In this document: one piece after another, positions 11,820-43,809 of the stretch | Layout: every line of letters starts with the position of its first letter | How positions within the stretch are numbered: the stretch's first letter is position 1 | From: Escherichia coli | GTDB taxonomy: Bacteria > Pseudomonadota > Gammaproteobacteria > Enterobacterales > Enterobacteriaceae | NCBI RefSeq assembly: GCF_046105845.1 | Contig: NZ_CP151004.1 | DNA: 64,000 nt | Direction: 5' to 3' (one strand) | Position numbers and translations under genes: made by a program | The notes under the pieces: generated by a model | The model's database searches: none | What the model was told of the DNA's origin: nothing | Seen by the model: the letters and a program-made list of their open reading frames with translations, nothing else

Positions 11820-11866
11820 TCGTCTGAGAGCTGGCAGCCCCGTTCGCGGGGCTACCGCCAGACCAC

Positions 11867-12145
11867 TCATTTTTTCGGTTTAGTGTAGCTACGCATCAAC
11901 TGCGTTCTGTCGATAAACTCATGGGTCTGCGGATCATGGTAGCGTGATGGCCATATAACCCAGGGGTCAGTTCCCAGGGCTTTCGCAATAATCATCTCTC
12001 CTTTCGGCCAGGGGCGCGATAATGCGTTCGCCAGCGTTGAGGAACTCAAACCATTTCTGCGAGATTCCGCCGCCATTGACGTTCCCTTCTTGCGCAAACC
12101 CGCAATGATGTCAGCGGGATGCCAGTCAATGAAATTACTTTCCAT
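11867..12145 (-). CDS. sfsB: Ner-like DNA-binding transcriptional regulator SfsB (Nlp), 92 aa
   Basis: MESNFIDWHPADIIAGLRKKGTSMAAESRRNGLSSSTLANAL. Confidence 0.88.
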   Translation of the reverse strand: MESNFIDWHPADIIAGLRKKGTSMAAESRRNGLSSSTLANALSRPWPKGEMIIAKALGTDPWVIWPSRYHDPQTHEFIDRTQLMRSYTKPKK

Positions 12146-15285: not shown

Positions 15286-16473
<1,188 letters not shown>

Positions 16474-16512: not shown

Positions 16513-17946
16513 CTAATTGTTCTGATAAATATCTTTGTACAAACGGCTTTCAAAACGCACTAACGGAATACGGCGATTACGCTGATCCGCGGGTTCTACT
16601 GCATAGCCGGAAAGATATTGCACAAACGCCATTCGTTGCCCGCTCGCCGTGGTAATGAATCCCGCCAGGTTATATACCCCCTGCAACGAGCCGGTTTTCG
16701 CTGAGACTTTGCCATCCACGCCCGCCTGATGCAGACCTGCACGGTACTGCAAAGAGCCGTCATAGCCCGCCAGCGGCAGCATAGAGATAAAGTTAAGTTC
16801 ATTGTCGTGTTGGGCTATGTATTGCAGCACCTGCATCATGGTGGCGGGGGCAATCAGGTTATGCCGCGAAAGCCCTGAACCATCGGCAATAATGGTGTTA
16901 CCAATATCGACACCGGCTTGCTGGCGCAGGATCTGACGCACGGCGTCCGACCCGGCCCGCCATGTTCCAGGCACATTGAAGCGCGCATGGCCTATCATGC
17001 GGAAAACCGTATCGGCAATCATGTTGTCCGACTTTTTCAGCATAATCTTAAGCAGATCGTGCAGCGGGGCCGACTGTTTACTGGCAACTACCGTTCCAGG
17101 TTCGTTAACCTGCGTCTGACGCAGCAGTGTTCCGCTCCAGGTGATACCTGCCTGTTTTAACTCATCTTTCAGAATTGCTCCGGCATAGCTGGCTCCATCC
17201 TGCACGGCAAAAGCCAACGGGAGCGGCTCAGAACGTTGTGGCAGGCATCCGGTCAGCGTAAAGCGGTTCAGGTCGCCTGGCACCACATCCAGCTCGCAAT
17301 ATTGCGCTTCGGCAGAACCACGGGGGAGGGTGCGTACCTGGCTGAACATCGTAACGGGGTAATAAGATGCCACGCGTATAAAAGCCATATCACCAGGTTT
17401 TGGGGCACTGTAGAGCGAGACGGAGAAACAGTTGCGGTCAACTATGGCGGCAGCAGGCGGAGCGCTAAAGCATTGTGTCATGTCATTCCATGGCCAGCCG
17501 GGGGCTTTATCGTGGCTGGCGAAAATGGAGGTATCTATCAACACATTGCCATCGATTTGGTTGACGCCAGATTTTTTCAAAGTCGCGACCATATTGCGAA
17601 TATCCTGACGTTTTAACGTCGGATCGGCACCAAATCGCGCCACTAAGTCACCCTTAAGTACGCCGTTTTCCACATTACCTTTGGTTTCAAGCGTCGTGGT
17701 AAAACGAAAATCGGGGCCGAGTTGAATCAACGCCGCCAGTGCAGTAATCACTTTCTGCGTACTGGCGGGCAGCGCCATCTGCTGACTGTGGTAATCAATA
17801 GCGGGGGCCGACGCGCCGACTTTTTGCACCATCAGGGCAAGGTTGGCACCAGCGGGGAGTTGAGTAATGTACTCATCAACATTTGCGGCCTGAACACTGA
17901 ACGCTATACAGCTGGTCAATCCGATGATAAATCTGGAAAATCGCAT
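16513..17946 (-). CDS. dacB: D-alanyl-D-alanine carboxypeptidase/endopeptidase PBP4, 477 aa
   Basis: MRFSRFIIGLTSCIAFSVQAANVDEYITQLPAGANLALMVQKVGA; active-site STQK within PASTQKVITALAAL. Confidence 0.95.
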   Translation of the reverse strand: MRFSRFIIGLTSCIAFSVQAANVDEYITQLPAGANLALMVQKVGASAPAIDYHSQQMALPASTQKVITALAALIQLGPDFRFTTTLETKGNVENGVLKGDLVARFGADPTLKRQDIRNMVATLKKSGVNQIDGNVLIDTSIFASHDKAPGWPWNDMTQCFSAPPAAAIVDRNCFSVSLYSAPKPGDMAFIRVASYYPVTMFSQVRTLPRGSAEAQYCELDVVPGDLNRFTLTGCLPQRSEPLPLAFAVQDGASYAGAILKDELKQAGITWSGTLLRQTQVNEPGTVVASKQSAPLHDLLKIMLKKSDNMIADTVFRMIGHARFNVPGTWRAGSDAVRQILRQQAGVDIGNTIIADGSGLSRHNLIAPATMMQVLQYIAQHDNELNFISMLPLAGYDGSLQYRAGLHQAGVDGKVSAKTGSLQGVYNLAGFITTASGQRMAFVQYLSGYAVEPADQRNRRIPLVRFESRLYKDIYQNN

Positions 17947-18065
17947 AATCTCGCGCTAACAACCTGGAATCGAGCCGTCATACTACGGCGCAACGCCCTA
18001 TAAAGTAAACGATGACCCTTCGGGAACTTCAGGGTAAAATGACTATCAAAATGTGAATTGTAGCT

Positions 18066-18099
18066 GACCTGGGACTTGTACCCGGGTCGGTATTTTTTT
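18066..18099 (+). promoter_or_regulatory. greA leader hairpin plus U-tract (attenuator; likely 3' end of the GraL leader RNA)
   Basis: gacctggg...cccgggtc inverted repeat followed by ggta ttttttt (18093-18099), about 95 nt upstream of the greA ATG. Confidence 0.5.
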
Positions 18100-18193
18100 G
18101 CTTCTGGTCCCGGTGAGGAGTTATGCCGGGCAGGCCGAACAGCCGGGGTGGGTGAAGACTTGCCCCATCAGGAATATTCAAGAGGTATAACAA

Positions 18194-18670
<477 letters not shown>

Positions 18671-18713: not shown

Positions 18714-18738
18714 AAAAAGGCCGCTATGCGGCCTTTTA
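18714..18738. terminator. Bidirectional intrinsic terminator between greA and yhbY
   Basis: aaaaaggccgctatgcggcctttta. Confidence 0.75.
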
Positions 18739-18825: not shown

Positions 18826-19119
18826 TTAGCGTGGCAGCGAGATTTTACGTTCTTTAGTTGGGCGATAAAGCACCAGCGTTTTACCGATGACCTGTACATT
18901 ACAGGCGCCGGTTTCGCGCACGATAGCTTCCACGATCAAGGTTTTAGTTTCGCGATCTTCGGTGGCGATTTTCACCTTGATGAGTTCATGGTGCTCTAAC
19001 GCTTGTTCAATCTCGGCCAGCACCCCTTCGGTCAAACCATTACTGCCAAGCAGAACAACTGGCTTGAGCGGATGTGCCAGACCTTTCAGGTGCTGTTTTT
19101 GTTTAGTACTCAGATTCAT
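18826..19119 (-). CDS. yhbY: CRS1/YhbY-family RNA-binding ribosome assembly protein, 97 aa
   Basis: MNLSTKQKQHLKGLAHPLKPVVLLGSNGLTEGVLAEIEQALEHHELIKVKI. Confidence 0.9.
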   Translation of the reverse strand: MNLSTKQKQHLKGLAHPLKPVVLLGSNGLTEGVLAEIEQALEHHELIKVKIATEDRETKTLIVEAIVRETGACNVQVIGKTLVLYRPTKERKISLPR

Positions 19120-19244: not shown

Positions 19245-19874
19245 ATGACAGGTAAGAAGCGTTCTGCCAGCTCCAGCCGCTGGCTTCAGGAACACTTTAG
19301 CGATAAATATGTTCAACAGGCACAGAAAAAGGGGTTACGTTCCCGTGCCTGGTTTAAACTTGATGAAATACAGCAAAGTGACAAACTCTTTAAACCGGGA
19401 ATGACGGTTGTCGACCTTGGTGCTGCCCCGGGTGGTTGGTCACAATATGTGGTCACCCAAATTGGCGGCAAAGGCCGCATCATCGCTTGCGATCTTTTAC
19501 CTATGGATCCTATCGTTGGTGTGGACTTTCTTCAGGGCGATTTTCGTGATGAACTGGTGATGAAAGCACTGCTGGAGCGCGTTGGCGACAGCAAAGTCCA
19601 GGTTGTCATGTCCGATATGGCACCAAACATGAGCGGAACACCGGCGGTGGATATCCCCCGTGCCATGTATCTGGTGGAACTGGCGCTAGAAATGTGTCGT
19701 GATGTATTAGCGCCAGGTGGCAGTTTTGTAGTGAAGGTGTTCCAGGGCGAAGGTTTCGATGAGTATCTAAGGGAAATTCGCTCCCTGTTTACGAAGGTCA
19801 AAGTTCGTAAGCCGGACTCTTCTCGTGCACGTTCGCGGGAAGTGTATATTGTAGCGACCGGGCGTAAACCCTAA
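19245..19874 (+). CDS. rlmE: 23S rRNA 2'-O-ribose U2552 methyltransferase RlmE (FtsJ/RrmJ), 209 aa
   Basis: [44 protein letters not shown]; SAM motif [13 protein letters not shown]. Confidence 0.95.
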
Positions 19875-19973
19875 CCGGGAGATTTCAGACGAAAGTTTGA
19901 AAGATGCTGGATATAGAGTATCCTGACGCTGTTTTTAACACAGTTGTAATAAGAGGTTAATCCCTTGAGTGAC

Positions 19974-21908
19974 ATGGCGAAAAACCTAATACTCTGGCTG
20001 GTCATTGCCGTTGTGCTGATGTCAGTATTCCAGAGCTTTGGGCCCAGCGAGTCTAATGGCCGTAAGGTGGATTACTCTACCTTCCTACAAGAGGTCAATA
20101 ACGACCAGGTTCGTGAAGCGCGTATCAACGGACGTGAAATCAACGTTACCAAGAAAGATAGTAACCGTTATACCACTTACATTCCGGTTCAGGATCCGAA
20201 ATTACTGGATAACCTGTTGACCAAGAACGTCAAGGTTGTCGGTGAACCGCCTGAAGAACCAAGCCTGCTGGCTTCTATCTTCATCTCCTGGTTCCCGATG
20301 CTGTTGCTGATTGGTGTCTGGATCTTCTTCATGCGTCAAATGCAGGGCGGCGGTGGCAAAGGTGCCATGTCGTTTGGTAAGAGCAAAGCGCGCATGCTGA
20401 CGGAAGATCAGATCAAAACGACCTTTGCTGACGTTGCGGGCTGCGACGAAGCAAAAGAAGAAGTTGCTGAACTGGTTGAGTATCTGCGCGAGCCGAGCCG
20501 CTTCCAGAAACTCGGCGGTAAGATCCCAAAAGGCGTCCTGATGGTCGGTCCTCCGGGTACCGGTAAAACGCTGCTGGCGAAAGCGATTGCAGGCGAAGCG
20601 AAAGTTCCGTTCTTTACTATCTCCGGTTCTGACTTCGTAGAAATGTTCGTCGGTGTGGGTGCATCCCGTGTTCGTGACATGTTCGAACAGGCGAAGAAAG
20701 CGGCACCGTGCATCATCTTTATCGATGAAATCGACGCCGTAGGCCGCCAGCGTGGCGCTGGTCTGGGCGGTGGTCACGATGAACGTGAACAGACTCTGAA
20801 CCAGATGCTGGTTGAGATGGATGGCTTCGAAGGTAACGAAGGTATCATCGTTATCGCCGCGACTAACCGTCCGGACGTTCTTGACCCGGCGCTGCTGCGT
20901 CCTGGCCGTTTCGACCGTCAGGTTGTGGTTGGCTTGCCAGATGTTCGCGGTCGTGAGCAGATCCTGAAAGTTCACATGCGTCGCGTACCATTGGCACCCG
21001 ATATCGACGCGGCAATCATTGCCCGTGGTACTCCTGGTTTCTCCGGTGCTGACCTGGCGAACCTGGTGAACGAAGCGGCACTGTTCGCTGCTCGTGGCAA
21101 CAAACGCGTTGTGTCGATGGTTGAGTTCGAGAAAGCGAAAGACAAAATCATGATGGGTGCGGAACGTCGCTCCATGGTGATGACGGAAGCGCAGAAAGAA
21201 TCGACGGCTTACCACGAAGCGGGTCACGCGATTATCGGTCGCCTGGTGCCGGAACACGATCCGGTGCACAAAGTGACGATTATCCCACGCGGTCGTGCGC
21301 TGGGTGTAACTTTCTTCTTGCCTGAGGGCGACGCAATCAGCGCCAGCCGTCAGAAACTGGAAAGCCAGATTTCTACGCTGTACGGTGGTCGTCTGGCAGA
21401 AGAGATCATCTACGGGCCGGAACATGTTTCTACCGGTGCGTCCAACGATATTAAAGTTGCGACCAACCTGGCACGTAACATGGTGACTCAGTGGGGCTTC
21501 TCTGAGAAATTGGGTCCACTGCTGTACGCGGAAGAAGAAGGTGAAGTGTTCCTCGGCCGTAGCGTAGCGAAAGCGAAACATATGTCTGATGAAACTGCAC
21601 GTATCATCGACCAGGAAGTGAAAGCACTGATTGAGCGTAACTATAATCGTGCGCGTCAGCTTCTGACCGACAATATGGATATTCTGCATGCGATGAAAGA
21701 TGCTCTCATGAAATATGAGACTATCGACGCACCGCAGATTGATGACCTGATGGCACGTCGCGATGTACGTCCGCCAGCGGGCTGGGAAGAACCAGGCGCT
21801 TCTAACAATTCTGGCGACAATGGTAGTCCAAAGGCTCCTCGTCCGGTTGATGAACCGCGTACGCCGAACCCGGGTAACACCATGTCAGAGCAGTTAGGCG
21901 ACAAGTAA
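19974..21908 (+). CDS. ftsH: ATP-dependent zinc metalloprotease FtsH, 644 aa
   Basis: Conserved start [22 protein letters not shown] at ATG 19974 (ORF track begins 3 codons upstream at TTG); Walker A GPPGTGKT; zinc motif HEAGH. Confidence 0.95.
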
Positions 21909-43089: not shown

Positions 43090-43809
43090 ATGGGGCGTAA
43101 AGGACTACTTGCTATTGTATTGTTGAGCCTGTTTATCGCCATGATTTTTCAATTTTTCTGGCCTGCCCCACACGATGAACACGTTTTCCTGCCAGTTGAA
43201 AAACCTGTCGCACCGTCTTTAAAAATCATTCATCCTGGTGACCAGTTATTTATCCGCATTCTGAAAGCGGAAGATAAGCTGGAACTGTGGGCAAGCACCA
43301 ACAACAAGCCTTACGAACTCTATAAAACCTGGACTATATGCGCGTGGTCTGGTGGCTTAGGGCCAAAACACAAACAGGGGGATGGTAAAAGCCCGGAAGG
43401 TTTTTATGCCACCAACAAAGGGTTGCTTAACCCAAACAGCCGCTATCATCTGGCATTTAATATTGGTTACCCGAATGCTTACGATCGGGCAAACGGCTAC
43501 ACCGGTGATTTCATTATGGTTCACGGGAACTGCGTTTCAGCGGGCTGCTATGCCATGACCGATGCTGGTATTGAAGAGATTTATCAACTGGTGGCGCAGG
43601 CGCTGAATAGCGGGCAGAAGAGCGTGCCGGTGCATATCTTCCCGTTTGCGATGAACGAAGAAAATATGCGCCAGGCGCAGGTATGGCCGGAATATAATTT
43701 CTGGCGTATGTTGAAGCCCGGCTATGATTACTTTGAAAAAAATCGCCGATTGCCAACCATCACCGTTGAAAACCGGCGTTATAAAATCAGCCCAACAATT
43801 CTTCCTTAA
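43090..43809 (+). CDS. YafK/DpaA-like L,D-transpeptidase-fold (YkuD domain) protein, 239 aa
   Basis: [24 protein letters not shown] hydrophobic N-terminus; [19 protein letters not shown]; catalytic-type motif [15 protein letters not shown] (His...Ser-x-Gly-Cys); LKPGYDYFE; 3' end overlaps the yhbW 3' end by 23 bp. Confidence 0.8.

Follow-up and report, generated by a model that had tools for sequence, protein, structure and literature searches.

The GraL intrinsic terminator within the leader of Escherichia coli greA and the conservation of its arrangement across Enterobacterales

Background

Transcription of greA in Escherichia coli is known to end prematurely at a terminator located in the leader of the gene, from which short RNAs named GraL are released. 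The GraL element, its promoters, the imprecise termination and the feedback exerted by GreA are already known, having been published in 2010 (Potrykus et al., PMC2836576) and 2019 (Dylewski et al., PMC6829880), and the leader has its own Rfam family. The terminator has been described as a stem of 11 bp followed by AU7GCU2, and this stem is unusually long, as 11-bp stems account for 12% of the 148 natural terminators surveyed (PMC2836576). It is transcribed from two overlapping promoters, P1 and P2, the P2 start being 11 bp downstream of the P1 start (PMC2836576), and the AUG of greA lies at +150 relative to P1 (PMC6829880). Termination amounts to approximately 66% in vivo and 60% in vitro, and it is constant with growth (PMC2836576). 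On immobilised templates, with no added factors, the short transcripts were physically released and were insensitive to GreA and GreB (PMC2836576), so the process is intrinsic termination rather than pausing. The 3' ends of GraL differ by 1 nt over a 10-nt range (PMC2836576), and the RNAs measure 49-59 nt when they start from P1 and 37-47 nt when they start from P2 (PMC6829880). In the first Northern blots, a single chromosomal copy gave a GraL signal that could hardly be detected (PMC2836576).

The relation between GreA and its own leader has been described genetically. When greA is deleted, a leader fusion is derepressed about 3-fold and GraL is about 4-fold lower (PMC6829880). The effect of GreA needs the terminator and the GraL sequence, but not the native promoters, and it is lost with the catalytically dead variant GreA D41A; the 5' segment upstream of the hairpin is needed, along with the hairpin, for full autoregulation, while Nus factors, Hfq and sigma-E are dispensable (PMC6829880). 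No purified system has ever reproduced autoregulation by GreA (PMC2836576, PMC6829880), and the lack of an in vitro effect therefore points to another factor or to an indirect route. Overexpression of GraL improved competitive fitness, a scrambled control having no effect, and changed more than 100 transcripts (PMC2836576); in the later article, nudE is cited as the likeliest target in trans (PMC6829880).

Two classes of better-known elements are close to this system. Classical attenuators and riboswitches, such as the trp and his attenuators, T-boxes and metabolite-sensing leaders, share with GraL a Rho-independent terminator in the 5' UTR which sets how many transcripts reach the coding sequence. 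Unlike them, GraL is devoid of an antiterminator, a conserved leader peptide or an aptamer, its default state is approximately 66% termination, and its effector, GreA, increases termination. Moreover, the prematurely terminated leader transcript, which has no ligand-binding domain, is also reported to act on other mRNAs. Since the effector enhances termination instead of relieving it, the authors of the system concluded that it fits neither an attenuator nor a riboswitch (PMC6829880). Canonical terminators at the 3' end of genes have in common with GraL a G+C-rich stem-loop followed by a U-tract and factor-independent release in vitro. Unlike these, of which the hairpin at 18715-18737 of the sequence analysed here is an example, GraL sits in a leader, the first base of its tract is A, and release occurs across about 10 positions as opposed to 1-3.

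In this study, the greA leader was analysed in a window of E. coli DNA, meaning the whole stretch of 64,000 nucleotides that was available, and the terminator was compared with the published system and with its counterparts in other Enterobacterales.

Results and discussion

Identification of the element

The element in the E. coli greA 5' UTR is almost certainly the GraL terminator, which is of the intrinsic (Rho-independent) type. A search against Rfam returned RF01769 ('Enterobacteria greA leader') at 17977-18098 with a score of 127.5 bits, against a gathering score of 60 (E = 1.8e-24), and the match was full-length, covering model positions 1-124 of 124. The location is the one expected of this family, with greA directly downstream of the terminator and on the same strand of an enterobacterial genome. 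The sequence from 18045 to 18106 is identical to that of K-12 MG1655, the strain in which GraL was characterised, and the published 11-bp stem with its A-U7-GCUU tract is literally the sequence of the window. Because this identity extends from 18045 past 18106, the published experiments were made on exactly this sequence, and the present strain would be expected to behave like K-12. Position, P1 and P2 elements, stem and tract all agree with the described GraL (PMC2836576, PMC6829880, RF01769), and none of the evidence gathered contradicted the identification. The element itself does not differ from the K-12 locus; the whole dacB-greA intergenic region holds only two differences, G for A at 18115 and C for T at 18166, and these lie further downstream, in the read-through leader.

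The window derives from E. coli, and the 351 nt between 17900 and 18250 are 100% identical to many complete genomes. Used as a query, this segment had at least 99% identity in 5423 of the 5425 matching E. coli records. The locus is single-copy, with a median of one place per genome (5425 of 5426 E. coli genomes), and an origin of the GraL locus from a repeat element, which was also considered, was ruled out on these grounds. The RefSeq annotation of K-12 carries no RNA feature at the GraL site, and the literature search for Term-seq evidence on GraL yielded only incidental citations.

The surrounding genes follow the order obgE-dacB-greA-yhbY-rlmE-ftsH, which is the same as in K-12:

15301-16473, plus strand: obgE
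16513-17946, minus strand: dacB, annotated along with greA in matching E. coli genomes
18194-18670, plus strand: coding sequence of greA (158 aa), whose expression the terminator controls, recognised from its open reading frame and from greA in matching E. coli genomes
18826-19119, minus strand: yhbY
19245-19874, plus strand: rlmE
19965-21908, plus strand: ftsH

Promoters

The elements of both published promoters were recognised in the dacB-greA intergenic region:

18012-18045, plus strand: greA P1 promoter (sigma-70), scoring 9/12 in the promoter scan, with the published +1 at A 18045
18012-18017 and 18035-18040, plus strand: P1 -35 element ATGACC and -10 element TAAAAT, separated by a 17-nt spacer
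18023-18056, plus strand: greA P2 promoter (sigma-E), an exact match to the consensus GGAACTT N16 TCNAA (PMC2836576)
18023-18029 and 18046-18050, plus strand: P2 -35 element GGAACTT and -10 element TCAAA, separated by a 16-nt spacer, with +1 at A 18056

Given that the AUG of greA is +150 relative to P1, the P1 start falls at 18194-149 = 18045. This agrees with ApU-primed initiation, as AT occupies 18045-18046, and the P2 start at 18056 agrees in the same way with ApA priming (AA at 18056-18057). Judged by their sequence elements, the predicted P1 and P2 overlap, 11 bp apart, at the published positions just upstream of the stem.

Anatomy and stability of the terminator

The preliminary description had reported, at 18066-18099, an inverted repeat and seven T about 95 nt upstream of the greA start codon. 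In the sequence of this interval, GACCTGGGACTTGTACCCGGGTCGGTATTTTTTT, an inverted repeat precedes exactly seven T at 18093-18099, and the distance proved exact, as the A of the ATG (18194) is 95 nt downstream of the last T. The location was thus correct and the extent was short at both ends, with the stem beginning at 18063 and the published termination zone reaching 18103. The parts of the short RNA are as follows:

18045-18062, plus strand: unpaired 5' segment of GraL ahead of the stem, 18 nt from P1 and 7 nt from P2, according to sequence and folds
18063-18091, plus strand: terminator hairpin of 11 bp, G.U pairs included, supported by the shuffle z-score, by covariation and by the published 11-bp stem
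18092-18103, plus strand: A-U7-GCUU tract with sequence ATTTTTTTGCTT, the published termination zone

In the hairpin, the 5' arm GCTGACCTGGG (18063-18073) and the 3' arm CCCGGGTCGGT (18081-18091) enclose a 7-nt loop, ACTTGTA (18074-18080), and 7 of the 11 pairs are G-C. By our own arithmetic, the published GraL lengths map to 3' ends at 18093-18103. The description of this terminator as the source of the GraL leader RNA was likewise confirmed by the RF01769 match, the identity with K-12 and the published account. The short leader RNA that it would predict has been seen in published work, both as Northern clusters of about 45 and 55 nt and as released short transcripts in vitro.

The folding energy of a 61-nt stretch containing the terminator is -21.4 kcal/mol, compared with -11.2 +/- 2.6 kcal/mol in 200 dinucleotide shuffles (z = -3.97), and none of the 200 shuffles folds as stably. 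A strict scan for terminators, requiring a stem of at least 8 bp, dG <= -15 and at least 6 T directly after the stem, was applied to both strands of the window and returned three sites in 64 kb, the GraL terminator among them, as opposed to an average of 0.55 in 20 shuffles. A stable G+C-rich hairpin, an adjoining U-rich tract and a conserved structure are what characterise an intrinsic (Rho-independent) terminator, and all three are present here. The other two sites found by the strict scan lie at approximately 11825-11875 on the plus strand (dG -24.2) and 43742-43790 on the minus strand (dG -16.5).

Conservation across Enterobacterales

One genome per species was searched for counterparts with a pattern built solely from the two conserved blocks that lie upstream of the promoters, which leaves the terminator out of the selection. 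The search returned 109-110 loci, ranging from Escherichia, Salmonella, Citrobacter, Klebsiella and Enterobacter to Yersinia, Serratia, Pectobacterium, Brenneria, Sodalis, Erwinia and Pantoea. For the comparison of hairpins, 97 distinct sequences were taken from the position equivalent to the P1 +1, and they contain 91 different hairpin sequences. Folded individually, the 97 leaders have medians of 12 pairs, of -18.6 kcal/mol for dG and of 7 T among the 9 nt that follow the stem.

When the E. coli stem was laid on a MAFFT alignment of the 97 sequences, standard pairs were found in 88% of the cells and 8 of the 11 pairs were changed on both sides. Double-changed cells numbered 65, compared with 18 +/- 3.8 in shuffles, and in none of 500 shuffles was the percentage of paired cells, the covariation score or the number of double-changed cells as high as observed. 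Pairing was register-specific, falling to 21-58% when the 3' partners were slid by 1-3 columns. RNAalifold, applied to the plain MAFFT alignment of the 97 leaders, recovered only 4 central pairs, because differences in loop length and bulges misalign the arms; for this reason pairs were counted directly on the E. coli stem and each sequence was folded separately. In the original comparison of four species, 17 of 18 stem changes preserved pairing (PMC2836576), and the compensatory changes observed here in about 100 Enterobacterales species widen that result.

The promoters are conserved as well. Among 98 unique Enterobacterales sequences, the P1 -35 and -10 hexamers are invariant or nearly so, and the same applies across Enterobacterales to GAACT, in the sigma-E -35 element, and to ATCAAA. 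The start of greA could be located in 87 loci, and in 86 of these its distance from the P1 +1 equivalent is 136-166 nt. The arrangement of promoters, short 5' tail, hairpin, U-tract, leader of about 90 nt and greA is conserved across the order.

Some details of the E. coli terminator are less general. The G.U pair with which the stem begins at its base, which was called conserved in the 2010 article, is G.U in 50 of the 97 sequences and C-G in 19. Only the group of Escherichia, Citrobacter and Salmonella has an A followed by an unbroken U7, and in most other genera the U-tract is interrupted, as in UUUUCUUUU, which is found in many Enterobacteriaceae.

The sequence 5' of the stem has a pairing potential of its own. 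In E. coli, GUGAA (18053-18057) can pair with the end of the U-tract, UUUGC (18097-18101), and in many other genera GCAAAA at the same place can pair with CUUUUGC (loci L013, L031, L050, L053 and others). In per-sequence folds, the pairing between this A-rich run and the U-tract lengthens the hairpin to at most 20 pairs.

The 5' part of the RF01769 model

The Rfam model extends 68 nt upstream of the P1 start, to 17977. The survey behind it took as candidates up to 200 nt, or the sequence as far as the upstream gene, without start-site data (PMC2965389). The segment 17977-18044 contains the P1 -35 element and its upstream region. The first and largest of the 5' hairpins of the model pairs within the blocks GTCATACTACGGnGCAA (17977-17993) and AAAGTAAACGATGACCC (18002-18018), which are invariant in all 109-110 loci and are separated by a spacer of variable sequence and constant length (8 nt); being invariant, they provide no covariation in support of this hairpin. 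As a test of covariation this is weak, given that the search pattern itself fixes most of the block columns, and the flanking columns that were not selected are invariant too. The other two 5' hairpins, which are smaller, lie over the sigma-E -35 region and the -10 region. It is simpler to read the part of RF01769 between 17977 and 18044, the 5' two thirds of the match, as promoter DNA rather than RNA structure. Both the model and the idea of an antiterminator include about 68 nt of promoter DNA which is untranscribed from the mapped starts, and this calls for caution when RNA structure is inferred from them.

The read-through leader

Chains that pass the terminator carry a leader for which the minimum free energy (MFE) fold predicts a three-way junction:

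18104-18193, plus strand: read-through greA 5' UTR, including the Shine-Dalgarno sequence AAGAGG at 18180-18185
18102-18108/18167-18173, plus strand: predicted closing helix of the junction (MFE fold)
18109-18115/18124-18130, 18133-18135/18142-18144 and 18145-18153/18158-18166, plus strand: predicted helices of the junction (MFE fold)

The z-score of the whole leader is only -1.9. The predicted closing helix pairs GCUUCUGG, located just after the U-tract, with CAGGA (18169-18173), which is widely conserved and lies about 10 nt upstream of the Shine-Dalgarno sequence. Both differences from K-12 keep the predicted pairing, the one at 18115 giving G.U for A-U and the one at 18166 giving G-C for G.U. 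In an alignment of 85 leaders, inspected by eye within genus groups, the stems vary in sequence between genera and apparently remain paired. RNAalifold found no consensus for the read-through leader across all genera, because the region is too divergent for a single alignment.

Proposed mechanism and alternative explanations

Taken together with the published experiments, the features described above suggest the following course of events. Transcription would start at the two overlapping strong promoters, P1 (18045) and P2 (18056), and after 18 or 7 nt the nascent RNA would fold into the 11-bp G+C-rich hairpin (18063-18091). RNA polymerase would then release about two thirds of the chains within A-U7-GCUU, at about ten adjacent positions (18093-18103), the released products being the GraL RNAs of 49-59 nt (P1) or 37-47 nt (P2). 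The remaining third would read through the structured leader of about 90 nt into greA, the output of which would be set by the terminator. Catalytically active GreA, together with one further factor, would raise termination in vivo, amounting to negative autoregulation, and the released GraL RNA would also act in trans, as reported.

The least credible of the alternatives is that an inverted repeat happens to lie beside a T-run, or that the hairpin terminates another transcript, whether antisense to dacB or bidirectionally; the probability of this is close to nil. Generic terminator-like matches are admittedly common in the 3-kb region (8, as opposed to 3.8 +/- 2.0 in shuffles), but the z-score of -3.97 for this hairpin, the presence of only 3 comparably strong sites in 64 kb and the covariation in 97 sequences all argue against coincidence, which conservation and the published release of transcripts already refute. 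As for another transcript, no gene ends at this site, given that dacB and greA diverge, and what follows the stem on the minus strand is TACAATTCAC and not a T-run. It is also highly unlikely that the leader is a classical attenuator or riboswitch-like device, in which an upstream antiterminator competes with the terminator in response to a signal. The RF01769 consensus does have three hairpins 5' of the terminator, over 17977-18044, and antiterminator structures have been claimed for the greA and rnk leaders (Naville & Gautheret 2010, PMC2965389). Against this, transcription starts at 18045 and 18056, so that 17977-18044 is absent from the RNA, all three hairpins coincide with promoter DNA (-35, sigma-E -35 and -10), and published primer extension over the whole intergenic region suggests no transcript starting upstream of 17977. 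Ahead of the stem, the RNA has just 18 nt (P1) or 7 nt (P2), which leaves no room for an antiterminator; the terminator was kept in folds of 18045-18105, 18045-18200 and 17977-18105, none of which contained a competing antiterminator. The Rfam search gave no match to a riboswitch or T-box family, and neither a mutually exclusive antiterminator in the transcribed leader nor a leader peptide or other sensing module was found. Furthermore, GreA increases termination and does not relieve it. The term 'attenuator-like', used in the preliminary description, is therefore apt in so far as the terminator attenuates greA expression, and misleading in so far as the transcribed leader is without an antiterminator and GreA enhances termination.

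Another explanation, which we consider improbable, accepts the terminator as real and assigns it the role of a constitutive dampener scaling down two strong promoters, with the short RNAs as by-products and the effect of GreA as an indirect one. It would account for a termination efficiency that stays constant through growth, for the absence of a GreA effect in vitro and for the weak detection of GraL from a single copy; in addition, the 2010 study identified no direct target of GraL, and overexpression of GraL left greA expression unchanged (PMC2836576). However, autoregulation depends on the GraL sequence and disappears when GreA carries D41A, the abundance of GraL follows the level of GreA, and the fitness gain obtained by overexpressing GraL is not reproduced by the scrambled version. 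The order-wide architecture argues for selection beyond promoter strength, yet it fits a conserved dampener equally well. It is possible, though doubtful, that the terminator directly senses the activity of GreA on RNA polymerase or, as the smaller possibility, that the read-through leader carries a conserved regulatory structure of its own. In the case of a sensor, the long stem with its basal G.U, the tract beginning with A and the release over about 10 positions may be the relevant features, and GreA-stimulated cleavage, with one other factor, may decide how polymerases in the U-tract are divided between backtracking, on the one hand, and read-through or release, on the other. In the case of the leader, its structure would, if the idea is true, couple the termination decision to translation. 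Neither idea alters the identity of the element as the GraL terminator, and the fact that GreA raises termination in vivo yet not in vitro is not made more tractable by sequence analysis.

Further elements near the locus

A start-stop mini-ORF, ATG TGA, is present at 18051-18056, 6 nt from the P1 start. It contains the only start codon in GraL and is absent from most genera, and a leader peptide was therefore rejected. Leaders of the Yersinia type have ATG CAA AAT TGA at this site, those of the Enterobacter and Citrobacter types have no ATG, and the mini-ORF is probably coincidental with the sigma-E -10 region. A second candidate, an ORF of 50 aa starting with TTG at 18076-18228, runs out of frame over the greA start and was discarded as being without support.

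On the minus strand, 18009-17980 reads TTTACT, 18 nt and TAGTAT, approximately 35-60 nt upstream of the dacB ATG (17946). With 8/12, which is below the threshold of the scan, it is a plausible candidate for a divergent dacB promoter.

Two GGA motifs in the E. coli read-through leader are reminiscent of CsrA sites, and the literature searched yielded nothing on binding of CsrA to this leader. In a Yersinia- and Serratia-like group, which also includes Sodalis and Chimaeribacter, the read-through leader has a hairpin, CGUUAGGAUGACG, with GGA in the loop, followed by a U-run, GGUUUUUUG. This hairpin (loci L002, L020, L043, L047 and others) lies about 95-120 nt after the P1 +1 equivalent and is absent from E. 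coli; together with the U-run it could be a second weak terminator or a hairpin of the CsrA type.

Downstream, the region between greA and yhbY, which converge, contains a perfect hairpin of 10 bp, AAAAGGCCGCTATGCGGCCTTTT, at 18715-18737, with A-runs and T-runs on its two sides. It looks like a bidirectional terminator, and weak, sub-threshold Rfam matches to STnc540 and STnc420 fall on the same segment.
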